Shown one piece after another: positions 2 to 24,327 of a DNA stretch of 27,633 nt. The position numbers were made by a program, and so were the translations under genes. Each line of letters begins with the position of its first letter. The first letter of the stretch is position 1. This DNA is from a virus (Duplodnaviria; Heunggongvirae; Uroviricota; Caudoviricetes). A model generated the notes under the pieces. It made no database searches, had not been told where the DNA came from, and saw nothing but the letters and a program-made list of their open reading frames with translations. The stretch lies in IMG/VR virus record IMGVR_UViG_2630968911_000005. One strand, written 5' to 3'.

Positions 2-1297
2 TTAATTTTTCATTGCTTCGTTATGGGGCATGGTTGGGGCAAACTCGCTTAACTGTGTATTTAACAAAGCTACCTGTGCATTATTGTTTTCAGACATCCA
101 TTTTCCGTATACCTGAAATACCATTTGCGCATCTGCATGGCCCATCTGGTTTGCTATAAATGCCGGGTTAGCACCAGCTGTCAGCGACCAGCAGGCATAA
201 GTATGTCTCGACTGATATGATTTTCGATGGCGGAGTCCGGCACGTTTTATCGCTGCGTCCCACATCTGCCTTATTGAGTCAACGGTAAAATGGTCACCAT
301 AATTTTTTACTCTCGCTGACACTTCAGGTTGAAAAACAAAGGTGCATTTATGTTTTTCTGTTCTGCCATACTCTCTGAGGTGAACATCAATGATATGCTC
401 TTTGCTCAGTCTCGTTAATGTCATCTGACTCCGGAGAGCGTCGATTGCTGGCTTAATAAGATGAATGACCCGATTGGTTCCCGCCTGTGTTTTTGGTACC
501 GTGAAACGGTCTTTTGCTAAATTTCTCCTGATCATCATTGTTCCATTTTTCAGATCTATGTCCTCCCATCCAAGTGCACACAGCTCACCAGGGCGAACGC
601 CAGTATAAACAGAAACACACCATAAATTTTTGGCTTGCTGATTTCTGCACGCATCGATAAGACGGATGAATTCCTCCCGCGAAAGAGGATCCGGAATGGT
701 TCTTGATTCCTTTAATGGCGAGATCCCCTTAAACGGGTTATCTGCCAGGTAACCGTTATCAACACCAAACTGGAACACGGCGTTAAGATTTGTCATGTAA
801 TTATTTACAGTTACAGCCGATCTCCCTGGTTGTGTAACAATATAGTTACTTTTGGGGATCTGGTATCCAGTCAGTAGCTCTTTACGAACCTCCAGTAATT
901 TTTCTTTATTAATCGATGAGGCAAGATTTTTTTCACCGATTATGCTCAGGATATTTTTGATGACGGCACGGTATGTGTTGAGTGATGTTTTTGCGACTTC
1001 AGTTTCTTTCAGTGCCAGAAATTTTTCAGCCAGTTCTTTTATGGTTAAATCTTGTCGAGTCTCACCAAATTTTTCCAGATTGCGTGAGGAGGGAAACTGT
1101 TTTGCATAGTCGAAAACACCAGTTTTTATTGCGTAACAAACAGAGGCGCGTAGCTCACCTGCAACGCGCCTGTTTTTTGCTGTGTCAGGAACCCCCAGGT
1201 TTTCCCTGACTCTTACGCCTTTATAAACAAACCAGATACGTAATTTCCCTCCATGGTTTTCCACGCCTGTCGGATATTTCATTTCAACTTCTCTCAT
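2..1297 (-). CDS. Phage tyrosine integrase (site-specific recombinase), apparently intact; alternative start at 1282 (MKYPTG...)
   Basis: 431-aa ORF with stop at 2-4. C-terminal region has tyrosine-recombinase-like motifs (SRHTYA ... MGHA ... VYGKW). Lies next to an Xis-like gene at the prophage end. Confidence 0.9.
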   Translation of the reverse strand: MREVEMKYPTGVENHGGKLRIWFVYKGVRVRENLGVPDTAKNRRVAGELRASVCYAIKTGVFDYAKQFPSSRNLEKFGETRQDLTIKELAEKFLALKETEVAKTSLNTYRAVIKNILSIIGEKNLASSINKEKLLEVRKELLTGYQIPKSNYIVTQPGRSAVTVNNYMTNLNAVFQFGVDNGYLADNPFKGISPLKESRTIPDPLSREEFIRLIDACRNQQAKNLWCVSVYTGVRPGELCALGWEDIDLKNGTMMIRRNLAKDRFTVPKTQAGTNRVIHLIKPAIDALRSQMTLTRLSKEHIIDVHLREYGRTEKHKCTFVFQPEVSARVKNYGDHFTVDSIRQMWDAAIKRAGLRHRKSYQSRHTYACWSLTAGANPAFIANQMGHADAQMVFQVYGKWMSENNNAQVALLNTQLSEFAPTMPHNEAMKN

Positions 1298-1316
1298 TAG
1301 TTAGTGTGGCTTTTAG

Positions 1317-1568
1317 TCAAGTAAGATGACGTCTTGGTCTTGCTGATGCCTGGCGCTCAATCCAGCGATCAATTTCTTCCAGGTTGTAAAAGCATGGACT
1401 GTTATCCCATGGCATACCGTCATGAGCGACATGCTTATATTCCCTTCCTTCCATAAACGATTTTTCCCGGGCCTTTTTTAACGTACCTTTTTTTATTCCT
1501 TTCAGCGCAATTAACTGCTCTTCGGATACCCATTTGCCGGGAGAGACAATCATGATTACTTCGCTCAT
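1317..1568 (-). CDS. Excisionase-like DNA-binding protein (Xis)
   Basis: 83-aa ORF directly upstream of int on the same strand. Contains GREYKHV, resembling the GREYLFH segment of lambda Xis as recalled. Confidence 0.65.
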   Translation of the reverse strand: MSEVIMIVSPGKWVSEEQLIALKGIKKGTLKKAREKSFMEGREYKHVAHDGMPWDNSPCFYNLEEIDRWIERQASARPRRHLT

Positions 1569-1640
1569 CGATTTCTTTATCTCTTACATCAGACGAGCGC
1601 CGGTTGCAGAATACCAGTCACAACCGGCGACAGTTGAACA

Positions 1641-2183
1641 TTAAGAATCAGCCTGACTCGGGATCAGTTTTTGCCAGATAACTGAAACGTATTTTGCCAG
1701 GTAACGGGCGTCATCAAGTGCATTATGGCGCTCACCTTCGAATGGAATAGCCGTTCTGGCATCGAAGTCTATGGCTTTCCCCAGCTCAACGATTGTGCGT
1801 ACATCGCGATCGTTGTAGTAACGCCACGGGCAGGGGATCCCCTGCCGTTCGTATGAACGGCGCAAAATCGTGTTGTCGAAGTTGGCTCCATTTCCCCAAA
1901 CCTGAACAAAAAATTCACCGGAGTTTTCGTCGATAAATTCTCGCAATTGTAACAGTGCATCATCTAACGGGATTTCATCGGTCATAATGGCAGATTGCGC
2001 TTCGCGTGATTGCTTAAGCCACCATTTAATGGTGTCCCGATCAATGACTCCGCCAGCAGTTTCCAGATCGATAGTCTTACTAAATTCCGGTCCCATATCT
2101 CCGGTTTGCGGATCGAAAAATATTGCACCTATTGAGATGATCGGGGCATCAGGATTTTTTCCCATGGTTTCAAGGTCGATCAT
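1641..2183 (-). CDS. DnaQ-like DEDDh 3'-5' exonuclease; start uncertain (longest ORF runs to 2333, overlapping the upstream gene)
   Basis: Exo I motif MIDLETMG and Exo III motif HNALDDARY are present. The internal ATG at 2181-2183 avoids overlap with the upstream gene, whose stop is at 2231. Confidence 0.8.
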   Translation of the reverse strand: MIDLETMGKNPDAPIISIGAIFFDPQTGDMGPEFSKTIDLETAGGVIDRDTIKWWLKQSREAQSAIMTDEIPLDDALLQLREFIDENSGEFFVQVWGNGANFDNTILRRSYERQGIPCPWRYYNDRDVRTIVELGKAIDFDARTAIPFEGERHNALDDARYLAKYVSVIWQKLIPSQADS

Positions 2184-2230
2184 TAGATGGTCACACGTCC
2201 TGCTGGTGGATGTGATTTCGTGATGACCGT

Positions 2231-4111
2231 TCACCTTAATTGGGTGATCTGCCGTCTCGCCAGTTTCATTATCGCTATTGTGATGCTGATTGCCGCCAGT
2301 GTTCTCCTTGTGTGGATGTTCAGCGCCTTCCATTTCCTCCGGATCATCTCCTGAACTTCAACCTGATACTCTTCATCGAATGTTTCTTGGTATGTTGCGT
2401 CGCCCATCACCGCGCCACAATCAGGGCAGTTGCCGCCGCCGGTCTGACCGCAGGCGGTGCAGGCTTTTTCCACTTCCTGTTGCGCCACTGGTTCAGGCTG
2501 TTTCGTTTCTGGCTCGTTTTGTAACGCATTTGGACTGTTTTGTTCCGCTTTTTGGTAGTTCCGTTCCGATTCATGCTGGTTCTGGTTCACAGAATCGCGG
2601 GTCTGGAGCCCCTTAACCCATTTCGGATCATTCGGGTCACTAATCCCTTCAACAAATTCACCACGTGATGCAGCAAGCAACTTATCGGCGTCAGGCTGGC
2701 TGATATTGGCTGCCTGCATAATTTTGTTTACTTCGTCAGCGGTAACTTTTATCGGCTCTGGTTGTTCTGAATCTTCAGCGGTATCTACATTTTGCGGTAA
2801 GCCCGTGTATGTGCCATTTTTTCGGGCAAAATATTCTTCTTTTGTGATTTCAGTGGCGCCAGCAGCCAGTGCCTTATCCAGACCAGAGAGTTTGTTTGCG
2901 CGACCGTATTTTTCTCCGTCCTTATCTGCGAAGAGGAAATAGAACGGCCCCTCACGCTCTACAGATGGTTCAGCTTCCGGCGCGGTTTCATTTTTTGGGA
3001 TATCAGATACCTCAGTTTCCACTGCATCAGTTTGTGTTTCTGATGACTGGAGAACATCAACAGTGCCCAGGTCTGTTTCTTCATTCTCAAACACGCCCTT
3101 TGTCGTCAGGTATTCGCAGATATATTTGTTCAGTGCTACGGGATCTTTGTGAATGTCGATCGGACGCTCACGGACAAGGCCAAAAATAGTTTGGCGGTCG
3201 TAGCGAAGGGCATCAGGCTGTTTGCGCATTGATGCCGAGATACGCTTCCAGTCTTCGCGGTCGTTGTCGATAACTTCTTTTTTTGCCCAGCGATGGATGC
3301 TGCCGTCAATGTTTCCGGCATCCACATCACTAGGCCAGAGAGCGTAGGCCAGTTCGTCATCCAGTGTTTTCCATGTCTGCTTGTATTCGCGATGAATGGC
3401 AGCAATGACCGGGCTGATTTTTCCTGTTGAATTTTCAGTGTACTGTTGATTGGCTCTGGCGCGGGCGAGATCAACAACAGACGTGTATTTTCCGGTTTCC
3501 TTGCGTTCACCTTCGCGACGTTTTTTCCAGATGCGCATCTCTGCCTGAATTTCGGGCCATTTAGCACCAGGAATACATTTATGCTTAACCCACCCAATGG
3601 CGTGCAACTTAAGCTCCGGATACATGGCGTTAACTTCTGGCATTTTCATCAACGCTTCAACGATATGTCCGTCGAATGTTGCCATGTCTTCCTGCAACAA
3701 TTCCTGTGCGCTAATAACCATATCAACGGTGATGTTTTCACATGTGTCGAACTTAACCATGACAGCGTTCTGTACTTCAGGGGCCAGCTTGTCAAAAGTG
3801 ACGTTCATCGGATCGGATTCAGTCTCAACCGGGACAAAAGAAGCAGACTCCTCATCCCAGCGGTTTTCCTGCATATATTCAGCATCCCATGAATCGAGGG
3901 CAGGGCGGGGTATGCCAGGTTTATCCTCGCAGACAATAAATTTATAAGCGCAGTCCTGAGCAGCCGGATAATGTTCCAGGAATTGCCAGTGAAATTTTGC
4001 TCGAGCACGGCGTTCGTCGCCAGCTTCAATGGCTGTGGCTACAGCCACAGCGCCTTCTTCCCTTGTTGCCAGTTCGTCAGGAATAGCGGCGCAAATAAAG
4101 ACTTTACTCAT
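2231..4111 (-). CDS. Large early-operon protein, RecE (exonuclease VIII) N-terminal-region-like, ending in a Cys4 zinc ribbon; no recognisable nuclease domain
   Basis: Long ORF; ATG at 4109-4111 (MSKVF...) is preceded by GAGG 9 nt upstream. Internal segment KLLAASRGEFVEGISDPNDPKWVKGLQTRD resembles RecE as recalled. C-terminus has CTACGQTGGGNCPDCG. The acidic central region is low complexity. Confidence 0.6.
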   Translation of the reverse strand: MSKVFICAAIPDELATREEGAVAVATAIEAGDERRARAKFHWQFLEHYPAAQDCAYKFIVCEDKPGIPRPALDSWDAEYMQENRWDEESASFVPVETESDPMNVTFDKLAPEVQNAVMVKFDTCENITVDMVISAQELLQEDMATFDGHIVEALMKMPEVNAMYPELKLHAIGWVKHKCIPGAKWPEIQAEMRIWKKRREGERKETGKYTSVVDLARARANQQYTENSTGKISPVIAAIHREYKQTWKTLDDELAYALWPSDVDAGNIDGSIHRWAKKEVIDNDREDWKRISASMRKQPDALRYDRQTIFGLVRERPIDIHKDPVALNKYICEYLTTKGVFENEETDLGTVDVLQSSETQTDAVETEVSDIPKNETAPEAEPSVEREGPFYFLFADKDGEKYGRANKLSGLDKALAAGATEITKEEYFARKNGTYTGLPQNVDTAEDSEQPEPIKVTADEVNKIMQAANISQPDADKLLAASRGEFVEGISDPNDPKWVKGLQTRDSVNQNQHESERNYQKAEQNSPNALQNEPETKQPEPVAQQEVEKACTACGQTGGGNCPDCGAVMGDATYQETFDEEYQVEVQEMIRRKWKALNIHTRRTLAAISITIAIMKLARRQITQLR

Positions 4112-4203
4112 TTGTTTTAACCTCATGACAGATTTAAGGATGAACAAATCCCTGCCATTGCTGGCATATAAGAATGAAACCGGATATTTATTACGGAACT
4201 GTT

Positions 4204-4395
4204 TTAAAGACCTGCCGGGATTTCGATATTATCCTGGTGAATAACTTTATCGACCGGGTAACAGTTACCGGGAATTTTCTGTTCGGTTGCTGCAGTCATA
4301 CACTCCTGCATTGTCCTGTGAACACTGACTGCAATATCAACTGGCTCTCCGGAAACAAGAAAAACTGTCAGAACAAGCACAAATGCTGAATTCAT
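4204..4395 (-). CDS. Small hypothetical protein with N-terminal signal-peptide-like hydrophobic segment
   Basis: 63-aa ORF (MNSAFVLVLTVFLVSG...). Its ATG overlaps the stop of the upstream gene (ATGA, 4392-4395), suggesting translational coupling. Confidence 0.5.
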   Translation of the reverse strand: MNSAFVLVLTVFLVSGEPVDIAVSVHRTMQECMTAATEQKIPGNCYPVDKVIHQDNIEIPAGL

Positions 4396-4580
4396 TGTGC
4401 ACATCCTTTTGGCATCAGACGTAAACGAGCCAGCATTGAAACAATGCATATTTTATTTAATAGCTCCCGTTCTTGTTTTCTCTTGTTAATGGCATCTTCA
4501 GTAAATACTGGGTTACTGATAGTGACACCAATTTCAAAACAACCTTCAGACGTATTAACGTTTGGTAATAACGTTTTCAT
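4392..4580 (-). CDS. Small hypothetical early-region protein (62 aa)
   Basis: ATG at 4578-4580 with GAGGA about 9 nt upstream. Sits where lambdoid phages carry kil/cIII-like small genes. Function not recognisable. Confidence 0.5.
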   Translation of the reverse strand: MKTLLPNVNTSEGCFEIGVTISNPVFTEDAINKRKQERELLNKICIVSMLARLRLMPKGCAQ

Positions 4581-4663
4581 TATCGCGTCCTCAACAATGA
4601 ATTTTGTGATGCAGTGCCTGGTGCCTCCAGGTGACGTTAACCAGTTAACAATTAACGCCGGAT

Positions 4664-4993
4664 ATGTGCTGTGGCAGCCGCATGTTCTGGTTCGATAAGT
4701 CTGACGAACGGGCGATATTCAGCGATATCAGAAAAGAAGGATACACATTACGCAATGGGAGACGCTTGATTATCAGCCCTGACATTATCGCAGATTTTCG
4801 TGCATTATCATTTGCAGACGCATCTTTTTCGATGGTTGTATTAGACCCTCCGCATCTTGAGAGTGTTGGTGATAACGCCTGGATGGGAAAGAAATATGGA
4901 CGGCTGAATAAAGATGCCTGGCGTGATGATTCGCGACAGAGATTTAAAGAAGCCTTTCGGGTGTTGAGGCCGCACGGCGTTCTGATTTTTTAA
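4664..4993 (+). pseudogene. Truncated DNA N6-adenine/N4-cytosine methyltransferase fragment (DPPH motif)
   Basis: ORF contains SFSMVVLDPPH followed by RVLRPHGVLIF, the pattern of amino-methyltransferase motif IV and a downstream block. It stops right after, with no continuation in any frame. Confidence 0.5.
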
Positions 4994-5415
4994 TGGAATG
5001 AAACGCAAATACCGGTAAGCCAGATTCTGGCACTGACAGACAGAAAACCTGTTATCTGTCAACGAACAGGGAAAAAACGATAAAACCCACTGGATTATTT
5101 TTATGAAAGAGGCATCCAGTGAGTAGATTCGTAAGGCTACAGATACGTATATCTGAATAATTAAATTCAGTTCTGTAAATAAAATTTAATCCTTAACCGG
5201 ATGGATTTCTGCACCCTCAGAACATCAGGAGGCCGCCCGAAAGGGCGGTAGTGAAATGCGAAAGTTCAAAATTATTATTGAAACGGGAATAGCTGGTGGA
5301 GATTTTGAGGATGTATTCGAAGTGGACGATGACGCAACACCTGAGGAAATTCATGACGGAGCATAAGAAATTTTCTTTAACTACTGCAATTACTCATACC
5401 ACGAAATAAAAGACG

Positions 5416-5607
5416 ATGAGGAAGAACAAAGTGGCTGATTTTTGTTCAGCTAAATATAACATCAGTTTTGAAGAGCGGGATGAACTATTAATGGACTATG
5501 GTGAGTTACGCGGTGGAAGTGCTGCTGATGTCGAATCCTAGCGTGATGACTATGAAGCGGGAAAAACTCCGGTCGAAGCATATTGTGATGAGTGGGGCGA
5601 TGAATGA
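5416..5607 (+). pseudogene. Small ORF with in-frame amber codon (TAG 5539-5541); read-through frame stays open to TGA 5605-5607
   Basis: Manual translation: MRKNKVADFCSAKYNISFEERDELLMDYGELRGGSAADVES-TAG-RDDYEAGKTPVEAYCDEWGDE. The extended frame ends in an ATGA overlap with the next ORF. Confidence 0.3.
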
Positions 5608-5891
5608 GCGAGATTAATTATCAGGAAGGGCATGAAACGGCGGGGCAAGCAAAACCAGTGGCATGGCGATATCGCTACGTGAAAAAAGGCGTTACGGACT
5701 TTCAGGGGAAGTAGTGGTCTGGTGACTGGAAATATGTACCGAAAAAAGAGGATTGTAACGACAGGCCGAACTATCAAATTCAGGCCTTATTCACTGCCTC
5801 ACCAGTCCCAGTTACATCAGAAGAACTGGTTAAAGCTGTGCACTTTTATGAACAACTAAAACGCGAAAATCCACCAACATCCGGCAACTAG
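5604..5891 (+). pseudogene. Small ORF with in-frame amber codon (TAG 5712-5714); 95-codon frame if read through
   Basis: Manual translation: MSEINYQEGHETAGQAKPVAWRYRYVKKGVTDFQGK-TAG-WSGDWKYVPKKEDCNDRPNYQIQALFTASPVPVTSEELVKAVHFYEQLKRENPPTSGN. The downstream segment reads like protein and has no stops for 58 codons. Confidence 0.3.
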
Positions 5892-6145
5892 ATTAATGGA
5901 TTAACTATGTCGGTTAAACGACCAGCCAACTGAAAAAGCGGAAACCTGATTACAGGTTGCCAGATAAGGCAATGAGCTACCTGGCGCGGAACGGACTGAT
6001 AAGTATGGGGAATGTTTTACGATGAACCTTTAGACTAAAGAGTTTGTAACGCTATGTAAGTGATTTTTTCTGGTTTAGATATTTATATGTCCGGCCAAAT
6101 TGAGGTGTGTTTAAATGTAATTGCACATTGATTGTAGGAGGAATA

Positions 6146-6325
6146 ATGAAAAACGCATTGCAGTTTTTGTTTGTTGCGTTCTGGTTGTTCGCATCATGTA
6201 TGCCCATCATCTTCACAGCAAGGTATATGGAAAAAGTTGATGTTTTGATATTAATATTTGGATATATAAATGCCCTTTTTTTAGGGGTGTTCATGGCGGT
6301 CATGTGCATTGAATACTGGCGGTAA
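6146..6325 (+). CDS. Small hydrophobic protein (59 aa, two predicted transmembrane segments)
   Basis: ATG at 6146 preceded by AGGAGG 6 nt upstream. Product MKNALQFLFVAFWLFASCMPIIFTARYMEKVDVLILIFGYINALFLGVFMAVMCIEYWR. Confidence 0.45.
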   Translation: MKNALQFLFVAFWLFASCMPIIFTARYMEKVDVLILIFGYINALFLGVFMAVMCIEYWR

Positions 6326-6659
6326 ATACAGCGAACTCCATTGGTTTAGTTGGATATTTACTGTGCTGGACAAAAACGGTTTGCGGGGAAATCTTAGTTA
6401 AGTAGAATGACTGCGGGTGCTTGAGGCTATCTGCCTCGGGCATGGACACCAACGGCAGATAGAGAAAAGCCCCAGTTAACATTACGCGTCCTGCAAGACG
6501 CTTAACATTAATCTGAGGCCAATTTCATGCTAGACACATGTAGGTTAGCCTCTTACGTGCCGAAAGGCACGGAGAAGCAGGCTATTGTTAACACCAAGCT
6601 GTAATGTCCCCTTTGAACCATTCTAAAATGTCCCCAGACAATTCTCTGGGGGATTTTTC

Positions 6660-7973
6660 ATGATCAAAGAGACTGTTACGATGAGTCATAAGGAACTCCA
6701 CCGACTTCAGATTATTCAGGAACAAGCTGCGGCACGCATTGGCATTTCTATTCGGCAGGTTAAACGTCTGGTGCAACGGTATAGAAATGAAGGGCCTTCT
6801 GGTCTGGTTTCCCACCGACGTGGAAAGCGTCCTAATAATTCCTTTTCTACTGAATTCAGAGCAACAGTAATTTCACTCCTCAAAGGCCGTTACGCTGATT
6901 TTGGACCTACGTTTGCGTGCGAAAAATTGCGCGAGATACACGGTTTATCTTTATCCGTTGAAACTCTCAGAAAGTGGATGATAGAAGAGGGGTTATGGCG
7001 TGAACGCCGTCGTAAAATTGCCCGTATATATCAACGCCGCATGCGACGACCATCTTACGGTGAACTGATCCAGATTGATGGCTCACCTCATGACTGGTTT
7101 GAAAATCGAGGCCCCAGATGTACACTGATCGTTTTCATTGATGATGCCACCAGTGCGTTGATGGCGTTGCGTTTTGTGCCTGCTGAAACAACCCGGGCTT
7201 ACATGGAAACCCTCCGGGGTTACCTTAATGATCATGGCGTACCGCTCGCTCTCTACTCTGATAGACACAGTATATTCAGGGTAAATAACCCAGAGCGGGA
7301 AGGTGAGCTGACCCAGTTCACTCGTGCGATAAAGACACTGGGCATCGAGCCAATCCATGCCAACAGCCCGCAGGCAAAAGGGCGGGTAGAGCGCGCCAAT
7401 CAGACACTACAGGACAGGCTGGTCAAAGAAATGCGGCTTCAGAATATCAGTGATATTGAAACAGCAAATGCATGGTTGCCGACCTTTATTGAAGCCTATA
7501 ACAACCGGTTCGCTACGTCGCCTCGTACTACTGATAATGCTCATCTTGATGTGCACCATTCTGAAGAGGAACTGGGTTATATCTTCAGCCTACAGGCGAA
7601 GCGCGTTCTGTCTAAAAATCTCACTTTCCAGTACAAAAGCAGTGCGTTTCAGGTACGCAGTGAGGGCCGGGGATATCGACTTAGGCATTCGGTTGTTACT
7701 GTATGCGAGAACTTTGACGGTGAAATTAACGTTCTGTATGACGGGAAAGCGCTGGGCTGGGAAAAGTATGTTGATGGCCCGGAGCCTATACCACTGGATG
7801 ATGAAAAGAGTGTCCATGAACGAGTGGATAATGCCCGTATTGATTTACGCTCAAAATACTATGTTAAACCTAAAGCTGACCATCCCTGGCTTACGCGCCG
7901 AACGCAAAGTCATCAGCAAGTTAAGCCCCCGAAGTTACCTAAAAAGAAGCCTGATCCCGATAAAAAAGATTGA
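6660..7973 (+). CDS. DDE transposase/integrase, rve superfamily with N-terminal HTH; IS481-family or ISNCY(IS1202-group)-like
   Basis: 437-aa ORF. N-terminal pattern RQVKRLVQRYRNEGPSGLVSHRRGKRP; catalytic D (IQIDGS), D (LYSDRHSIF) and E (GRVERANQTLQ). RBS GGGGGA upstream of ATG. Confidence 0.8.
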   Translation: MIKETVTMSHKELHRLQIIQEQAAARIGISIRQVKRLVQRYRNEGPSGLVSHRRGKRPNNSFSTEFRATVISLLKGRYADFGPTFACEKLREIHGLSLSVETLRKWMIEEGLWRERRRKIARIYQRRMRRPSYGELIQIDGSPHDWFENRGPRCTLIVFIDDATSALMALRFVPAETTRAYMETLRGYLNDHGVPLALYSDRHSIFRVNNPEREGELTQFTRAIKTLGIEPIHANSPQAKGRVERANQTLQDRLVKEMRLQNISDIETANAWLPTFIEAYNNRFATSPRTTDNAHLDVHHSEEELGYIFSLQAKRVLSKNLTFQYKSSAFQVRSEGRGYRLRHSVVTVCENFDGEINVLYDGKALGWEKYVDGPEPIPLDDEKSVHERVDNARIDLRSKYYVKPKADHPWLTRRTQSHQQVKPPKLPKKKPDPDKKD

Positions 7974-8005
7974 AACCAAGATCGATTCGGTTGAGTGCAT
8001 TGATC

Positions 8006-8896
8006 CTACCCACGTAATATGGACACAGGCCTAAGCGAGGTTCTGGTTTTCAATTGTTCCGGACTGAGGCCGCCACACCAACTGTGCCGCCGCCACCGAT
8101 TGTAATCACATTCGATATAATTAAATACCGTTGCCCGCATTATTTCCCGGCTGATAAAGTGTTTTCCATGGATACATTCCACTTTCAGCGAATGAAAGAA
8201 GCTTTCCACGCAGGCATTATCGTAGCAGCAACCTTTTGCGCTCATACTTCCACGCAGATTATGCCGCTTCAGTTGCGCCTGATAATCTGCTGAACAGTAC
8301 TGGCCTCCACGGTCCGTGTGAACGATAACGTTCCGGGGCCTCTTACGCCGCCACAGCGCCATCTGCAGGGCATCGCAGGCCAGTTGCGCCGTCATGCGTG
8401 GCGACATTGACCAGCCAATAACGGCACGTGACCACAGGTCAATGACCACTGCCAGATACAGCCAGCCTTCATCTGTACGTAAGTACGTGATGTCTCCTGC
8501 CCACTTCTGGTTCGGGCCACTGGCGTAAAAATCCTGCTCCAACAGATTTTCTGACACAGGCAGGCCGTGTGCGCGGTAGCTGACCGGGCTGAACTTCCGG
8601 GAGGCCTTTGCCCTCAGTCCCTGACGGCGCAGGCTTGCCGCCACGGTTTTTACGTTAAAGGGGTAACCCTGAGCACGCAGTTCATCCGTCAGGCGTGGGG
8701 CACCGTAACGCTGTTTTGACCGGGTAAAAGCCGCGAGGACAACGCTGTCGCAGTGTTGGCGGAACTGCTGACGCGTGCTTATCCTTGTCCGCCGCTGACA
8801 CCACGTATACCAGCCGCTGCGGGCCACCCGGAGCACGCGGCACATTGCTTTGATGCTGAACTCAGCCTGATGTTTTTCAATAAAGACATACTTCAT
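8006..8896 (-). CDS. insF: IS3 transposase OrfB (InsF), DDE integrase core
   Basis: Protein matches IS3 InsF as recalled ([21 protein letters not shown] ... DRGGQYCS ...) except at the extreme C-terminus. Confidence 0.9.
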
Positions 8897-9192
8897 TTCA
8901 GGCGCTTCGCGAAGTATGTCGCGGCCTTTTGGAGGATAGCCAGCTCTTCATCCCGTTCTGCCAGCTGGCGTTTGAGACGTGCAATCTCGGTAGACATCTC
9001 CAGTTCACGTTCAGAAGACGTCTGCTGATTTTGCTGTTTACTGCGCCAGTTGTAGAGCAGTGATTCATACAGGCTGAGTTCACGGGCTGCGGCAGTAACA
9101 CCGATGCGTTCAGCAAGCTTCAGGGCTTCACTGCGAAATTCAGGCGAATGCTGTTTACGGGGTTTTTTACTGGTTGATACTGTTTTTGTCAT
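8893..9192 (-). CDS. insE: IS3 transposase OrfA (InsE), HTH protein
   Basis: [32 protein letters not shown]... matches IS3 OrfA as recalled. The ORF track begins 3 codons upstream (9201). Confidence 0.9.
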
Positions 9193-9669
9193 GTGAGTCA
9201 CCTCTGACTGAGAGTTTACTCACTTAGCCGCGTGTCCACTATTGCTGGGTAAGATCACATATCCATTCATAGGGTAGATTCTTAAGTCGCGTTTCTGGTG
9301 TTCATTTTCGGGTGGTTTGTTACTTGTTTTACCGGGGATATGCCAGAAACGCGCTGAGTCAGTCTGGGCGGTGCGCGTAATGAGGCGTTATGGTAAATAG
9401 CCTATGCTAATGTCCGCTAAGAGCAAGAAGCGGAAGTTGGCAGTTTTGTGGACTGTCCCCACAAAAGTGACTACAGAAATAGTTGCAATTCATAATTGAT
9501 CATGGGTTGTCAGTTAAACTCGTGGCGATTTAAATAGACTAATTGGGAGTGCGTCCATTACTTATATCTTGTAATGTTAACTATCAGAAATGATACAAAG
9601 ATAATATGTCTTTAAAGAAAAGGCTGATGGCGAAAAGTGGCCCGATGAGGGCCACAATACGGCTGTCAC

Positions 9670-10002
9670 TTAGACGTAAATATCAATGGTGCCAGCGGTA
9701 TTTGTATCGTCTTTTTTCTCTTCTTTTTTATCAGGCTGAACTGTCGCGTCTTCATTCTTTTTCTCTGCCTGCTGCCTTAACAACTGCTCCAGTTGAGCCC
9801 AGAGGCTTTCAATTTGCTTCTGTACCAATGCAGCCATTTCTTTTTTCTGCTGTGTCGTCATCCCCTCTTCCGATGAGATTTTCCCAAGCTTTTCAGTCAG
9901 CACCTGAATTTGTCTTGTGATTTTGGCTATTTCTGATGTTCCTTCCGGGGCGGAGTTGTTTGAAATAACGGTTGAGGTATTTCCCTGAATTGTGACAGAC
10001 AT
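9670..10002 (-). CDS. flxA: FlxA-like protein (FliA-regulated prophage gene)
   Basis: 110-aa product matches E. coli K-12 FlxA as recalled. RBS AAGGAG upstream. Confidence 0.9.
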   Translation of the reverse strand: MSVTIQGNTSTVISNNSAPEGTSEIAKITRQIQVLTEKLGKISSEEGMTTQQKKEMAALVQKQIESLWAQLEQLLRQQAEKKNEDATVQPDKKEEKKDDTNTAGTIDIYV

Positions 10003-10025
10003 AGATTTCTCCTTTTAAAAAAGCA

Positions 10026-10052
10026 CTATCGGCATGCACAAAAAAATCTTTA
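10026..10052 (-). promoter_or_regulatory. Sigma-28 (FliA) class 3 flagellar-type promoter for flxA
   Basis: Minus strand reads TAAA-N15-GCCGATAG (consensus TAAA-N15-GCCGATAA), ending about 24 nt upstream of the flxA ATG. Confidence 0.6.
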
Positions 10053-10204
10053 ATCGTATTTCTTGTGTCATTAATTGTTTGATGTTCAGATTGTTTTCCT
10101 CGCGGGCTGGCGCGCCTCAGAAAGTAAAGCTTGTTGACAGGGGTAAACGTTCGGCAATAATTTTCTGCCGCATGCGGGTGTTGCATAAAACGTGTTACGT
10201 TCCT

Positions 10205-10510
10205 TTATCGACAGGTCAGGTCACCGCTCACCCGCCGACGAGAAAGCAACACTGACATGCTAAAGCAAAAAATAGATGAATAAGTTGAGTTGTGCATATG
10301 TAGCCTGACCGTCACAAAGTATATGGTGTCTGTACCAGTAAGATGATGGCCGGACTCTTTAAAAACGAGCTGACCTGCACAATACAGGATGGACTTAGCA
10401 ATGGCTGCTCCTGGCACAAAGCGGACAGTGATCACCGTTCTTACGACTACTTTCTGACTTCCTTCGTGACTTGCCCTAAGCATGTTGTAGTGCGATACTT
10501 GTAATGACAT
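10205..10510 (-). CDS. ydfV: Hypothetical protein (YdfV-like position and length, 101 aa); doubtful gene
   Basis: ORF divergent from relB, same position and length as K-12 ydfV. No clear RBS or motifs. Confidence 0.3.
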   Translation of the reverse strand: MSLQVSHYNMLRASHEGSQKVVVRTVITVRFVPGAAIAKSILYCAGQLVFKESGHHLTGTDTIYFVTVRLHMHNSTYSSIFCFSMSVLLSRRRVSGDLTCR

Positions 10511-10523
10511 TTGTAATTACAAG
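10471..10523 (+). promoter_or_regulatory. relBE promoter (TTGCCC-N17-GATACT) with overlapping operator repeats (relO)
   Basis: CTTGTAATGACATTTGTAATTACAAG at 10498-10523 has repeated TTGTAAT hexads with dyad symmetry, just upstream of relB. Confidence 0.6.
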
Positions 10524-10534
10524 AGGTGTAAGAC

Positions 10535-10774
10535 ATGGGTAGCATTAACCTGCGTATTGACGATGAACTTAAAGCGCGTTCTTACGCCGCGCTTGAAAAA
10601 ATGGGTGTAACTCCTTCTGAAGCGCTTCGTCTCATGCTCGAGTATATCGCTGACAATGAACGCTTGCCGTTCAAACAGACACTCCTGAGTGATGAAGATG
10701 CTGAACTTGTGGAGATAGTGAAAGAACGGCTTCGTAATCCTAAGCCAGTACGTGTGACGCTGGATGAACTCTGA
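10535..10774 (+). CDS. relB: RelB antitoxin
   Basis: 79-aa product matches K-12 RelB as recalled (MGSINLRIDDELKARSYA...). Stop overlaps relE start (TGATG). Confidence 0.95.
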   Translation: MGSINLRIDDELKARSYAALEKMGVTPSEALRLMLEYIADNERLPFKQTLLSDEDAELVEIVKERLRNPKPVRVTLDEL

Positions 10775-11061
10775 TGGCGTATTTTCTGGATTTTGACGAG
10801 CGGGCACTAAAGGAATGGCGAAAGCTGGGCTCGACGGTACGTGAACAGTTGAAAAAGAAGCTGGTTGAAGTACTTGAGTCACCCCGGATTGAAGCAAACA
10901 AGCTCCGTGGTATGCCTGATTGTTACAAGATTAAGCTCCGGTCTTCAGGCTATCGCCTTGTATACCAGGTTATAGACGAGAAAGTTGTCGTTTTCGTGAT
11001 TTCTGTTGGGAAAAGAGAACGCTCGGAAGTATATAGCGAGGCGGTCAAACGCATTCTCTGA
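10774..11061 (+). CDS. relE: RelE mRNA interferase toxin
   Basis: 95-aa product matches K-12 RelE as recalled (MAYFLDFDERALKEW...). Confidence 0.95.
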   Translation: MAYFLDFDERALKEWRKLGSTVREQLKKKLVEVLESPRIEANKLRGMPDCYKIKLRSSGYRLVYQVIDEKVVVFVISVGKRERSEVYSEAVKRIL

Positions 11062-11132
11062 ACCAAAGCATGACATCTCTGTTTCGCACCGAAGGTGACA
11101 CTTCTGCTTTGCGTTGACAGGAGAAGCAGGCT

Positions 11133-11288
11133 ATGAAGCAGCAAAAGGCGATGTTAATCGCCCTGATCGTCATCTGTTTAACCGTCATAGTGACGGCACT
11201 GGTAACGAGGAAAGACCTCTGCGAGGTACGAATCCGAACCGGCCAGACGGAGGTCGCTGTCTTCACAGCTTACGAACCTGAGGAGTAA
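11133..11288 (+). CDS. hokD: Hok-family small membrane toxin HokD (RelF), 51 aa
   Basis: Manual translation MKQQKAMLIALIVICLTVIVTALVTRKDLCEVRIRTGQTEVAVFTAYEPEE. Below the ORF-track size cutoff. RBS GGAGAAG upstream. Confidence 0.85.
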   Translation: MKQQKAMLIALIVICLTVIVTALVTRKDLCEVRIRTGQTEVAVFTAYEPEE

Positions 11289-11356
11289 GAGACCCGGCGG
11301 GGGAGAAATCCCTCGCCACCTCTGATGTGGCAGGCATCCTCAACGCACCCGCACTT

Positions 11357-11390
11357 AACCCGCTTCGGCGGGTTTTTGTTTTTATTTTCA
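11357..11390 (+). terminator. Rho-independent terminator after the relBE-hokD operon
   Basis: Stem CCCGC/GCGGG with TTCG loop, followed by TTTTTGTTTTTATTTT. Confidence 0.6.
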
Positions 11391-11504
11391 ACGCGTTTGA
11401 AGTTCTGGACGGTGCCGGAATAGAATCAAAAATACTTAAGTAGCGCGCAGGGATAAGAGGGATGGTCCCTTAAAGGGGAGAGCTAATTATCCGGAAGGAT
11501 TCTG

Positions 11505-11756
11505 ATGATGAACATCGAAGAACTGCGTAAAATTTTTTGTGAAGATGGCCTCTATGCTGTGTGCGTTGAAAATGGAAATCTTGTTAGTCATTACCGCATT
11601 ATGTGTTTGCGAAAGAATGGGGCTGCGTTAATTAATTTTGTGGATGCTCGGGTCACGGACGGATTTATCTTGCGCGAAGGTGAGTTTGTCACTTCATTAC
11701 AGGCATTGAAAGAGATCGGAATAAAAGCTGGCTTTTCTGCTTTTTCAGGAGAATAA
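11505..11756 (+). CDS. rem: Rem protein (function unknown)
   Basis: 83-aa product matches K-12 Rem as recalled (MMNIEELRKIFCEDGLYAVC...). Confidence 0.85.
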   Translation: MMNIEELRKIFCEDGLYAVCVENGNLVSHYRIMCLRKNGAALINFVDARVTDGFILREGEFVTSLQALKEIGIKAGFSAFSGE

Positions 11757-11822
11757 ACTCATCTACAATCTTGCGCGGGGCTGAACTCCCGCTGAGTAAC
11801 ACCGTGCCACCGGAGAAAACCG

Positions 11823-12101
11823 ATGGCACGCAACGCAAAATATTACAATTCTGATAATTCGCCCGTTCTTGCCTGCACGCACGGGCGGTATTCTCACGCA
11901 TTCAAGTCTGAATGGTTCCAGCACCCTCCATGCACTGCAGAACAGGCCGAATGGCTGATTCATTCTTACCGCAGGCGCGGGTTCGAGGTTAAGAAAGCTC
12001 TCAGTCTCGACTATCGGCACTGGATAATCTCTGTCAGGCTGCCTTATTCCGAACGCCCACCACGTGCGTCCCGCACTTTCCAGCAACGGATCTGGAGGTA
12101 A
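11823..12101 (+). CDS. Hypothetical protein (92 aa) immediately upstream of ydfU
   Basis: ORF ends 2 nt before the ydfU start. Cys/His-containing sequence. No homolog recognised. Confidence 0.4.
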   Translation: MARNAKYYNSDNSPVLACTHGRYSHAFKSEWFQHPPCTAEQAEWLIHSYRRRGFEVKKALSLDYRHWIISVRLPYSERPPRASRTFQQRIWR

Positions 12102-14552: not shown

Positions 14553-14852
14553 AAAAATTCCTTAATACTGATAACTTGGCGCACTATACACACGTTCCTG
14601 AAGAAAGCTATAGTTTTTTGATGGGGTTGAAGATGGCTGGATGTCTAAAATAAACATTGCTTCATATGTTCAACTATGCGTTAATGATTGCGTCGGTTTG
14701 AAGAACAGACGATATACGAAGTAGTTTACTAAAGCAGTTCTCATTTCAGGTGTTATTCACTTATTCCTTCTTTGAGTCTCTCCAATTAAGTACGAAGTCG
14801 TTTCTGTTATGCAAACCATTTATGCCGAAAGGCTCAAGTTAAGGAATGTAGA

Positions 14853-15068
14853 ATGTCAAATAAAATGACTGGTTTAGTAAAATGGTTTAACGCTGATAAA
14901 GGTTTCGGCTTTATTTCTCCTGTTGATGGTAGTAAAGATGTGTTTGTGCATTTTTCTGCGATTCAGAATGATAATTATCGAACCTTATTTGAAGGTCAAA
15001 AGGTTACCTTCTCTATAGAGAGTGGTGCTAAAGGTCCTGCAGCAGCAAATGTCATCATTACTGATTAA
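14853..15068 (+). CDS. cspB: Cold-shock protein CspB
   Basis: 71-aa product with RNP motifs (KGFGFI, VFVHF). Long AT-rich 5' leader upstream. Confidence 0.92.
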
Positions 15069-15347
15069 AATTCATCGCTCGTCTGTATACGATAACGAAG
15101 AAGGCTGATGCCTGAGTAGAGATACGGACAGAGTAGTGAATATTGGATCTCTTTAATAAAAAGTAAGGAGGTCCAATACATGAAACAATGGCTAGCATAT
15201 TTGGCAAAATCTTAATCAGGAAAAGTATGCTAACCATTGTGGTGAAGTGCAGGTTTGCTGCATGAATAGTTTTACAGCAGAAGCTAACTGCTGGCATGGC
15301 AAAACAAAGTGCGTAAGTGGATGACTCCCACAAAAAGCACCACAATC

Positions 15348-17377: not shown

Positions 17378-17739
17378 GGTAATATTAAATCGGAACATTT
17401 ACATCGCGGAATGTAAAATTTAAATAAAAAGGACTCTTCCATGAGCCAAAATTCCTGAAATCTTAAGGGTAAGATAAAAGGTCTTAATCAGAATGACACG
17501 TTTTATTAATAAATAAAGCTATTCTTTCATTGCTGTGTTTTTCTTTACAAAAGTAATCCTTGCTATGGGTGGTTAATCATGCGTTAATGGTGTTCTGGTT
17601 TGTTACAAATTTATCTGAAGCAGTCATTGTTATAATTTTATTATTTGTACCTCTTGAGATTTCCTTGTTGGTTTTTCTCTCTGATATTTTTTTTCGGACC
17701 ATTCTGCCCAAGGGCTAATTTCTTCAAAAGGTAATAATT

Positions 17740-17952
17740 ATGTCTAACAAAATGACTGGTTTAGTGAAATGGTTTAACCCTGAAAAAGGTTTTGGTTTCA
17801 TCACGCCGAAAGATGGCAGCAAAGATGTGTTTGTCCATTTCTCAGCAATTCAGAGCAACGATTTCAAAACATTAACTGAGAATCAGGAAGTTGAATTTGG
17901 TATTGAGAACGGACCTAAAGGTCCTGCCGCTGTTCATGTAGTGGCGCTTTGA
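17740..17952 (+). CDS. cspI: Cold-shock protein CspI
   Basis: 70-aa cold-shock-domain protein ([34 protein letters not shown]...). RBS AAGGTAA. About 350-nt AT-rich leader. Confidence 0.92.
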
Positions 17953-18156
17953 GGTAGACAATATTACAAACCATATTCACTTTAGATGCCCGTGTTGTCA
18001 TGGTTCCCAGTATAGAACATCATCTTTTGATGTTTCTGACATGAATCCTTTCGGGGCAAAATGTATCTTTTGTAAATCAATGATGATTACATTTGATAAT
18101 ATTTCACAATACTTAAATGCCAGCCGTCTGTCGTTGGATTTAAAAAAGTGAAAATG

Positions 18157-23752: not shown

Positions 23753-24327
23753 TGGCATTCAGAATGAGTGAACAACCACGGACCATAACAATTTATAATC
23801 TGCTGGCCGGAACTAATGAATTTATTGGTGAAGGTGATGCATATATTCCGCCTCATACAGGTCTGCCAGCAAACAGTACCGATATTGCACCGCCAGATAT
23901 TCCGGCTGGCTTCGTGGCTGTTTTCAACAGTGATGAGTCATCGTGGCATCTCGTTGAAGATCATCGGGGTAAAACGGTTTATGACGTGGCTTCCGGCGAC
24001 GCGTTATTTATTTCTGAACTCGGTCCGTTACCGAAAAATGTTACCTGGTTATCGCCGGAAGGGGAGTTTCAGAAGTGGAACGGCACAGCCTGGGTGAAGG
24101 ATACGGAAGCAGAAAAACTGTTCCGGATCCGGGAGGCGGAAGAAACAAAAAACAACCTGATGCAGGTAGCCAGTGAGCATATTGCGCCGCTTCAGGATGC
24201 TGCAGATCTGGAAATTGCAACGGAGGAAGAAATCTCGTTGCTGGAAGCATGGAAAAAGTATCGGGTATTGCTGAACCGTGTTGATACGTCAACTGCACAG
24301 GATATTGAATGGCCAGCACTGCCGTAG
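23752..24327 (+). CDS. tfaQ: Tail fibre assembly protein (Tfa)
   Basis: 191-aa ORF overlapping the stf stop (TAATG). N-terminus [26 protein letters not shown]. Confidence 0.85.

Follow-up and report, generated by a model that had tools for sequence, protein, structure and literature searches.

The hairpin-rich stretch at 6330-6585 of the window (the whole 27,633-nucleotide stretch of Caudoviricetes DNA analysed here, IMG/VR record IMGVR_UViG_2630968911_000005) is very probably the promoter, leader and antisense half of a hokD/sok locus, split from its toxin gene by a hok-targeting transposon that carries relBE. The first-pass annotation had described a noncoding stretch with GNRA-tetraloop hairpins upstream of a transposase gene and had suggested a structured RNA or an insertion sequence (IS) leader rather than junk. 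The first suggestion was borne out: the stretch is a hok mRNA 5' leader, conserved and structured, and the opposite strand bears a putative Sok-like gene. The second is wrong as to the stretch's origin, and the label "noncoding" is only partly right because a truncated mok frame begins at 6527.

A covariance-model scan and RNA folding had been proposed as checks on the stretch. In a whole-window scan, Rfam family RF01794 (gathering score 59 bits) matched 6415-6586 on the plus strand over its full length (model positions 1-157 of 157, 104.1 bits, E = 6.5e-23), starting at the conserved 5' GGGUGCUUGAGG and ending at the hok start codon. The leader folds with a z-score of -4.4 and the antisense segment 6550-6462 with a z-score of -4.7, and none of 200 shuffled sequences folded as well as either strand. 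Compensatory changes are found in both hairpins across nine hok leaders. A tRNA and tmRNA scan of the window returned no match, and the matching RefSeq records carry no annotation of the 6330-6585 stretch.

According to BLAST, 6330-6585 is widespread in complete Escherichia coli genomes, in many of which a Hok/Gef or hokD gene directly follows. Two intact loci were fetched, from strains 4621 (L002) and a15 (L003), and each aligns to the window in two pieces at 92-98% identity, the first corresponding to window 6029/6395-6585 and the second, unbroken, to 11119-11843, with an overlap of 16 query bases between them. The second piece begins with hokD, and what RF01794 detects, despite being named "sok", is therefore the hok leader in its sense orientation. 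The Hok open reading frame (ORF) stands directly after the leader in both intact homologues; in the window it is not overlapped by mok and lies 4.5 kb off, behind relBE. The features to the left of the insertion are as follows.

6381-6408, plus strand: predicted hok promoter, read from the sequence, with -35 TTGCGG (6381-6386), a 16-nt spacer and -10 TAGAAT (6403-6408)
6415-6585, plus strand: hokD-type mRNA 5' leader (RF01794) with tac, ucb, Sok target, mok start and hok ribosome-binding site (RBS)
6415-6473, plus strand: tac-stem of the minimum-energy and centroid folds, with an outer stem GGGUGCUU/AAGCCCC and a 9-bp stem 6427-6435/6454-6462
6464-6535, minus strand: putative Sok-like antisense RNA of ~70 nt, its ends placed by analogy with R1 Sok
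6527-6604, plus strand: mok', a truncated frame of 25 codons found by translation, with RBS GAGG at 6515-6518
6542-6570, minus strand: putative sok promoter, placed by comparison, with -10 TAACCT (6542-6547), a 17-nt spacer and -35 GTGCCT (6565-6570)
6556-6571, plus strand: GNRA hairpin CGTGCC-GAAA-GGCACG, directly before the hok RBS GGAG

The layout published for hok mRNA (tac/fbi, ucb, dcb, tac-stem, mok and Sok), including the role of the tac-stem (PMC9841398), was mapped onto the window, and the elements called predicted or putative here, the hok and sok promoters among them, were placed solely by where they lie and by comparison. When 6050-6750 was scanned for consensus promoters, none reached threshold. 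Transcription of the leader probably starts near G6415; a -10-like hexamer stands 6-7 nt before the conserved 5' GG(G/C)(T)GCTTGAGG in other hok leaders. The tac, ucb, Sok target and dcb elements are all present in the leader, which ends at the "AT" of the hok ATG and is 98% identical to the leader of L003, there running into hokD. In L003 the mok frame also continues in phase into hok to give a 70-codon ORF, and in the window mok' ends at a TAA (6602-6604) that falls within the transposon end. Upstream of the locus, PHROG and Pfam scans of a 59-aa ORF at 6146-6322 gave no match.

The hairpins flagged earlier fared differently. The 9-bp perfect stem, formed by CTATCTGCC (6427-6435) and GGCAGATAG (6454-6462), lies close to where it had been reported (about 6430-6465) and belongs to the tac-stem, in which the nine leaders show compensatory changes (AU to UA or the reverse in three sequences, CG to UA or the reverse in two). 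The CGTGCC-GAAA-GGCACG hairpin was given with the right sequence, 7 nt too far right (6563-6578). Its TGCC/GGCA stem is kept in nine of nine leaders; GAAA and GCAA are among the loops, and a double change from CG to AU occurs once. The hairpin's 3' arm doubles as the putative sok -35 when read on the opposite strand, and the insertion point lies 15 nt beyond. The similar CCGCCC-GAAA-GGGCGG hairpin does sit at exactly 5233-5248, where it is unrelated, being placed between the AGGAGG and the ATG of a DUF7167 pseudogene. That none of the three has a terminator T-run is correct for the plus strand; on the minus strand, however, a different, long hairpin (6474-6513) followed by GGGGCTTTTCTC looks terminator-like.

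By analogy with R1, the 6474-6513 hairpin, after which GGGGCUUUUC comes next on the minus strand, would supply both body and terminator for a Sok-like RNA of ~70 nt, extending from ~6535 to 6464. This RNA would have a 5' tail complementary to the mok start region, followed by the long hairpin and a U-run, and it folds at -29.1 kcal/mol into a single-stranded tail, the hairpin and UUUUC. Of the sok gene features, the hairpin and the U-run are present; the putative -10 is TAACCT, and the putative -35 reads GTGCCT rather than the TTGCCT of intact loci. The responsible substitution, A6570C, is lineage-specific: L002 and L003 have A, and C is found in 47 pooled left junctions. It both completes the perfect 6-bp GNRA stem, which is thus a derived state, and converts the sok -35 from TTGCCT to GTGCCT, which suggests that the left half of the locus is decaying.

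The other half of the locus resumes on the far side of the insertion.

11133-11288, plus strand: coding sequence of the displaced toxin gene hokD, 51 aa (Pfam PF01848 HOK_GEF, 82.9 bits, match span 11133-11285)
11321-11351, plus strand: fbi element, complementary to the 5' tac at 6415-6440
11359-11377, plus strand: terminator hairpin CCCGC-TTCG-GCGGG with a T-run, after fbi

RNAduplex pairs tac (6415-6440) with fbi (11321-11351) at -34.4 kcal/mol, a value reached by none of 500 shuffled 3' untranslated regions (mean -23.9, standard deviation 3.1). With the locus split by 4.5 kb, the two elements can no longer pair in one RNA. Between the halves lies the transposon.

6571-6585, no strand: left copy of the target-site duplication, GGAGAAGCAGGCTAT, 15 bp, a perfect direct repeat with 11120-11134
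6586-11119, plus strand: transposon of 4534 bp, or 3277 bp without the IS3 insertion, absent from the intact loci
6586-6611: transposon left end, TGTTAACACCAAGCTGTAATGTCCCC, an imperfect inverted repeat
6660-7973, plus strand: ISEsa1-type (IS1202-family/ISNCY) transposase, 437 aa (NCBIfam NF033594, 456 bits; cut-off 250 bits)
8001-9257, minus strand: secondary IS3-family insertion with a 3-bp duplication, CAT (NF033516, 336 bits)
9670-10002, minus strand: flxA cargo, from the RefSeq annotation of the identical ATCC 8739 segment
10205-10510, minus strand: ydfV cargo, from the RefSeq annotation of the identical ATCC 8739 segment
10535-10774, plus strand: relB (NF008412, 133 bits)
10774-11061, plus strand: relE (TIGR02385, 54.7 bits)
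11094-11119: transposon right end, TGTCAACGCAAAGCAGAAGTGTCACC (reverse complement), an imperfect inverted repeat
11120-11134, no strand: right copy of the target-site duplication, 15 bp, which gives hokD its RBS and the "AT" of its start codon

The duplicated 15 bp comprise the hok RBS through the "AT" of the ATG. The two ends are identical at 19 of 26 positions and both have TGTC motifs at ~20 and ~45, and the right boundary is the same in an unrelated plasmid context. They have the form of IS1202-type terminal repeats (~22-28 bp, imperfect), with the right repeat 3.3 kb from the left once the IS3 element is removed, not 1.6 kb. The transposase agrees at 437 of 446 aligned positions (98%) with the 446-aa WP_004196353.1-type protein, which RefSeq names "IS1202-like element ISEsa1 family transposase"; the sole difference is a 9-aa gap that overlaps N-terminal Pfam helix-turn-helix (HTH) matches. 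The annotated gene "ydfW" consists of the last 49 transposase codons (7824-7973). The window's copy of the transposon is probably immobile, because the HTH region of its transposase carries the 9-aa deletion and an IS3 element has inserted nearby; E. coli ATCC 8739 has an otherwise identical locus that lacks this IS3 element. Toward the right end, PHROG and Pfam scans of ydfV gave no match, and relB and relE, a type II toxin-antitoxin pair, overlap at 10774.

We also considered GTTAACATTAC at 9571-9582, a 12-nt inverted match to 6474-6485, as a native right repeat after the transposase, and rejected it because 5 kb would yield about one match of this kind by chance and because there is no duplication near +1609. 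What the variants all share extends to near +1609, which equals the length published for ISEsa1, and no duplication was found at this module end. Among 5426 E. coli genomes, some part of the element occurs in 1309 and at least 80% of it in 760. Counts of junction-carrying genomes derived from BLAST coverage were rejected as insertion counts because the left flank alone can reach 80% coverage.

The insertion is not peculiar to the window. At least six others are each bounded by a matching duplication of their own, 13-16 bp long, and five of these lie at the same position in hok.

L006, Enterobacter IncF plasmid: 3301 bp, duplication GGAGAAGAAGGCCAT
L009, Phytobacter IncF plasmid, with ncrYCBA and chrBA as cargo: 12843 bp, duplication GGAGAAGTCAGCTAT
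L012/L022, with an IS110-type transposase, a cytochrome b561 and a cation-efflux protein as cargo: 6093 bp, duplication GGAGAAGAAGGCCAT, in a different leader
L013, Kluyvera: 4487 bp, duplication GATGTTAGCCATG, 13 bp
L028, metagenome: 7694 bp, duplication GGAGATGTATGGGTCC, 16 bp
L010, degenerate chromosomal copy at a site outside hok: 2575 bp, duplication of 15 bp with 13/15 matching

The occurrences span plasmids, chromosomes and metagenomes and differ in their hok leaders and cargo, and one duplication of 13 bp and several of 16 bp were seen. In plasmids of other genera, transposase modules with the same left end abut unlike hok leaders at the equivalent position. With one genome taken per species, a hok leader stands at the left end in 12 of 15 informative genomes, and in seven loci the Rfam sok match ends exactly there. 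Among right junctions from metagenomes, 69 of 79 open with a hok ribosome-binding and start sequence, in 18 distinct versions, and ~20 of the 24 distinct left flanks from metagenomes pooled with viral contigs are of hok type. Of 109 occurrences pooled from other sources, at least 101 have relBE immediately upstream of the right end; the eight scored without it include two (L037 and L047) in which the 3' end of relE is visible. There is also a variant right-end module, lacking relBE, that is located in hok. In two loci (L092 and L100) the elements are in tandem with exactly one duplication copy between them.

The insertion point falls 15-16 nt past the GGCA(A) arm of the hairpin. Ends in non-hok DNA were found in four cases (L010, L016, L025 and L140) and the opposite orientation in one (L021). 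Two of the non-hok sites, L016 and L025, show an equal spacing from a GGCA(A/T), a weak hint as to what is recognised; the 6-bp repeat at L140 is too short for interpretation. Independent insertions at the same position and in the same orientation of one target were thus found, and their number should be read as ~7-20 truly independent events rather than ~100, since many of the junctions belong to one widespread E. coli lineage. The pattern suggests that the element is target-specific, inserting in one orientation 15-16 bp downstream of a GGCA(A) arm in hok loci. It also bears on the earlier proposal to check whether the interval is conserved with the transposase gene: a hok leader of varying sequence does adjoin the module in most contexts, and it does so because the element inserts into hok loci, the leader not being part of the element.

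Several other readings of the stretch and its neighbourhood have to be weighed. That the hairpins arose by chance in junk prophage DNA is virtually impossible: the lack of annotation under the match in RefSeq records is all that speaks for it, and it is already refuted by the Rfam E value of 6.5e-23, the fold z-scores of -4.4 and -4.7, the covariation in both hairpins and the contiguity of the leader with hok in intact loci. A very improbable reading, akin to the IS leader of the first-pass annotation, makes the interval the transposase's own or co-opted 5' leader, with the hok promoter driving the transposase and Sok acting as an antisense brake. The transposase always has the same orientation as hok, the hok leader is upstream in most contexts, and transcripts from the hok promoter would run into the left end. 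The left inverted repeat, however, begins only at 6586, so that the leader lies outside the left end and the duplication rather than travelling inside the element, and in other E. coli (L002 and L003 among them) the leader is joined to hok with neither element nor transposase. Leaders differ between insertions whereas the element is 90-100% identical, the mok' frame stops within the left end, and insertions outside hok also occur. A terminator-like hairpin with a T-run at 6631-6652, which includes the transposase RBS and is the only such site in a scan of 6050-6750, stands between the junction and the transposase ATG and argues against the hok promoter driving the transposase.

Two further readings accept a split hok locus. 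The left half might be kept as an orphan Sok antitoxin against incoming or resident hok mRNAs (anti-addiction) rather than being a decaying remnant, a reading that accords with the 100% conservation of the leader in many insertion-carrying genomes, with the intact Sok-like hairpin and terminator, and with a sok promoter lying entirely to the left of the duplication. We regard it as unlikely, given that the first base of the sok -35 has changed in this lineage (TTGCCT to GTGCCT), that the whole left half is deleted in K-12 and that the relBE-hokD transcript has no Sok target; recent common descent explains the high conservation equally well. Decidedly unlikely is a single ancestral hok insertion whose junction was spread by homologous recombination in hok flanks, with no target specificity. 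In that event the donor duplication would travel along, and instead there are at least five different duplications, each identical on both sides; they vary in length from 13 to 16 bp, a 15-bp duplication also surrounds the non-hok copy L010, and the tandem elements of L092 and L100 are parted by exactly one copy. What favours recombination is that hok loci are similar enough to recombine, that the left and right flanks of L169 are unlike, as in a recombinant, and that many junctions come from one clonal E. coli type.

Under the preferred reading of a hok locus split by a hok-targeting transposon, the element went into the hok start codon, separating "AT" from "G", and duplicated 15 bp; the transposase would make cuts staggered by ~15 bp beside the conserved hok hairpin. 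The element's left side is an ISEsa1-type transposase module and its right side relBE, with cargo in the middle, which is flxA and ydfV here and nickel/chromate resistance or cation-efflux genes elsewhere. The data show what the two locus halves are, where the insertion begins and ends, what it duplicated and contains, and that this junction recurs with duplications that differ; the cutting mechanism and the consequences given below are predictions. Owing to the duplication, hokD would keep its own RBS behind relE and so would be transcribed from the relBE promoter, on a transcript free of mok and Sok control. Co-transcription of relBE and hokD has been described (Gotfredsen and Gerdes 1998, as cited in PMC5120126). 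The left half would be limited to a leader RNA locked into the open tac-stem form, a 25-codon Mok' and perhaps a Sok RNA. It is a matter of speculation that relBE makes up for the post-segregational killing which a plasmid loses through the insertion.

The locus shares most of its layout with the R1 hok/sok (parB) system, the RF01794 family, including a 5' GG(C/G)GCUUGAGG tac, the tac-stem, the mok RBS GAGG, a (here putative) antisense RNA that ends in a long hairpin, a 3'-terminal fbi, a PF01848 Hok peptide and a hairpin just before the hok RBS whose 3' arm is the sok -35. Unlike R1, the window locus is split by 4.5 kb, its sok -35 is mutated and, in its subfamily, mok is in frame with hok (the 70-codon ORF of L003). 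It is the same locus as hokD (relF) of relBEF in the Qin prophage of K-12, with which it shares relB, relE, the right end, a duplication copy and hokD. K-12 lacks the region from ydfX to element position 1204, so that the hok promoter, leader, sok half and most of the transposase are gone, and it keeps element positions 1204-3274 plus hokD, that is, ydfW, flxA, ydfV, relBE, the right end and one duplication copy. The window, unlike K-12, keeps both junctions, and the insertion mechanism is therefore directly readable. [quoted passage not shown]

Chromosomal hokA, hokC and hokE are likewise associated with insertion elements (Pedersen and Gerdes 1999, as cited in PMC7232551). The window resembles them as a chromosomal hok locus inactivated by a mobile element and differs in that the insertion is in the start codon, the element carries cargo, the same nucleotide is hit in many hok loci and the duplication preserves an intact hok ORF with its RBS. 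IS150 and IS186 reportedly lie at hok loci close to but outside the reading frame. Within the IS1202 family, elements of the ISAjo2 group target dif/pdif sites in an orientation-specific manner, and ISEsa1 has been placed in a third subgroup as a 1609-bp element with no duplication in multiple examples and no target reported (Harmer, Pong and Hall 2023; PMC10132070). The present element is like the ISAjo2 group in its transposase family, its orientation-specific insertion a short and constant distance away from a small palindrome and its imperfect ~25-bp terminal repeats starting with TGT; it is unlike that group in targeting hok rather than a Xer site, in its duplications of 13-16 bp rather than 3-5 bp and in forming a mobile unit of 3.3-12.8 kb with relBE and cargo rather than a 1.5-kb IS. 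ISEsa1 has its own 15/22 terminal repeats according to ISfinder and Harmer et al. (PMC10132070), and among the junctions examined its published right repeat was not seen acting as an end. The published definition of a 1609-bp unit lacking a duplication does not describe these elements, in which 13-16-bp duplications flank units of 3.3-12.8 kb, and the comparison suggests that the true mobile unit is larger than published ISEsa1 and targets hok.

We tentatively propose, as a serious possibility, that ISEsa1 is not a 1.6-kb IS lacking a target duplication but the transposase module of an unrecognised family of cargo transposons, which make 13-16-bp duplications and insert specifically, in a single orientation, around the RBS and start codon of hok genes, and that relBEF, ydfW and hokD of K-12 are a scar left by it. 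Such a family would have the order left end, transposase, cargo, relBE and right end, with targets on plasmids and prophages, and each insertion would free Hok of mok and Sok, set hok behind relBE and leave an orphan leader/sok half.

The hok mRNA leader and Sok are among the best-studied regulatory RNAs, and the flagged RNA is ordinary in being a member of this well-studied family; the genomic context is more interesting than the hairpins. The RNA element and the hokD locus were already known, and hok targeting may be new, as it is undescribed in the literature searched, in which Pedersen and Gerdes (1999) and Ramisetty and Santhosh (2016) were represented by papers citing them. The window preserves both junctions of the event behind the textbook relBE-hokD operon. 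The comparison suggests that a transposon family homes on a type I toxin-antitoxin locus and swaps in a type II module, that an IS1202-family member listed as having neither duplication nor target has both, and that nickel, chromate and cation-efflux cargo can enter the hok loci of conjugative plasmids. If true, hok would be a second and different target class for the IS1202 family beside dif sites, and these insertions would provide a simple system for how a single DDE transposase finds a specific site.

The left end of the transposon (6586-11119) inserted in the hok locus contains a terminator-like hairpin that stops 7 nt upstream of the transposase ATG, with the likely transposase ribosome-binding site lying within its 3' arm. 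It looks like a guard against read-through from outside the element.

Features of the window (positions in nt)
5233-5248, hairpin CCGCCC-GAAA-GGGCGG, between AGGAGG (5227-5232) and the start codon (ATG, 5257) of a DUF7167-family gene
6146-6325, hydrophobic 59-codon ORF, unannotated (MKNALQFLFVAFWLF...), directly upstream of the hok promoter
6631-6662, terminator-like hairpin TCCCCAGA-CAATTC-TCTGGGGG, then ATTTTTC, within the transposon left end
7824-7973, annotated as ydfW in Escherichia coli K-12 and ATCC 8739, the final 49 codons of the ISEsa1-type transposase frame
8001-9257 (-), IS3-family element with a 3-bp duplication, CAT
14692-15084 and 17594-17979, two cspA-type thermoregulator leaders (Rfam, above threshold) of cold-shock genes in the Qin-like prophage
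24095-24293, IS009 (Rfam, above threshold), within an ORF of the tail-fibre region

Compared with the 446-amino-acid form of the transposase, the copy in the window is missing 27 bp at 6723 (nine residues, SINRHITQE), a deletion falling inside the part of the protein to which Pfam HTH models align. Among metagenome contigs the deleted form of the transposon (3273/3274 bp) and A6570C, the base change in the sok -35 hexamer (TTGCCT to GTGCCT), nearly always occur together. The gene annotated as ydfW shares its stop codon with the transposase frame.

At its right end the transposon terminates in TTGACA (11114-11119), a perfect -35 hexamer facing hokD, which apparently forms no hybrid promoter because no -10 element follows at the correct spacing. 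A variant of the right-end module without relBE was found in three other loci carrying transposon ends (L054, L062, and L069); the last ∼22 bp are the same and related sequence occurs farther inward. A hok ribosome-binding site and start follow this variant end in L062 and L069, and also in L092 and L100; the right flank in L054 is not hok.

The DNA around the hydrophobic ORF at 6146-6325 is ∼96% conserved upstream of an intact E. coli hok locus that has no transposon (L002), and the ORF had no match in Pfam or PHROG. Farther upstream, the hairpin at 5233-5248, if formed, would cut the 24-nt gap between AGGAGG and ATG to normal ribosome-binding-site spacing. Its sequence does not vary among at least 10 related loci and hence offers no covariation. 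The DUF7167-family gene that it precedes is a pseudogene in the window, and in-frame stops interrupt several phage ORFs across 5256-6025; in the identical stretch of ATCC 8739, RefSeq lists as pseudogenes a DUF7167 gene, interrupted by an internal stop, and a gene for a hypothetical protein, which carries a frameshift. The ATCC 8739 locus (L001), otherwise 99.5-100% identical, is without the IS3-family element. The window in turn lacks, at 4661-4664, ∼3.8 kb present in ATCC 8739 (L001 positions 1722-5562), a stretch of the Qin-like prophage that reaches from dicB to DUF977, dicA and dicC included.

Tandem transposons were observed in L092 (∼11714) and L100 (∼2736), in each case as a right end, a single copy of the 15-bp duplication and a left end, the last being a variant in L100 (TGTTAACGCCATGCTG). 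The target appears to be still usable after a first transposon has inserted. Elsewhere, one left end adjoins hok coding sequence in inverted orientation (L021, ∼6792), and another adjoins an Rfam isrO match (RF01397; L025, 6628-6741) rather than hok. In three different leaders that form transposon left flanks (L008, ∼1425; L012, ∼590; L014), the end of a second IS (...CTGTCCAACTTTTTGGGGTCAGTACA), which we take to resemble an IS150-group end, adjoins the hok leader just upstream of the mok ribosome-binding site. IS of more than one type may share the hok leaders as a hotspot.
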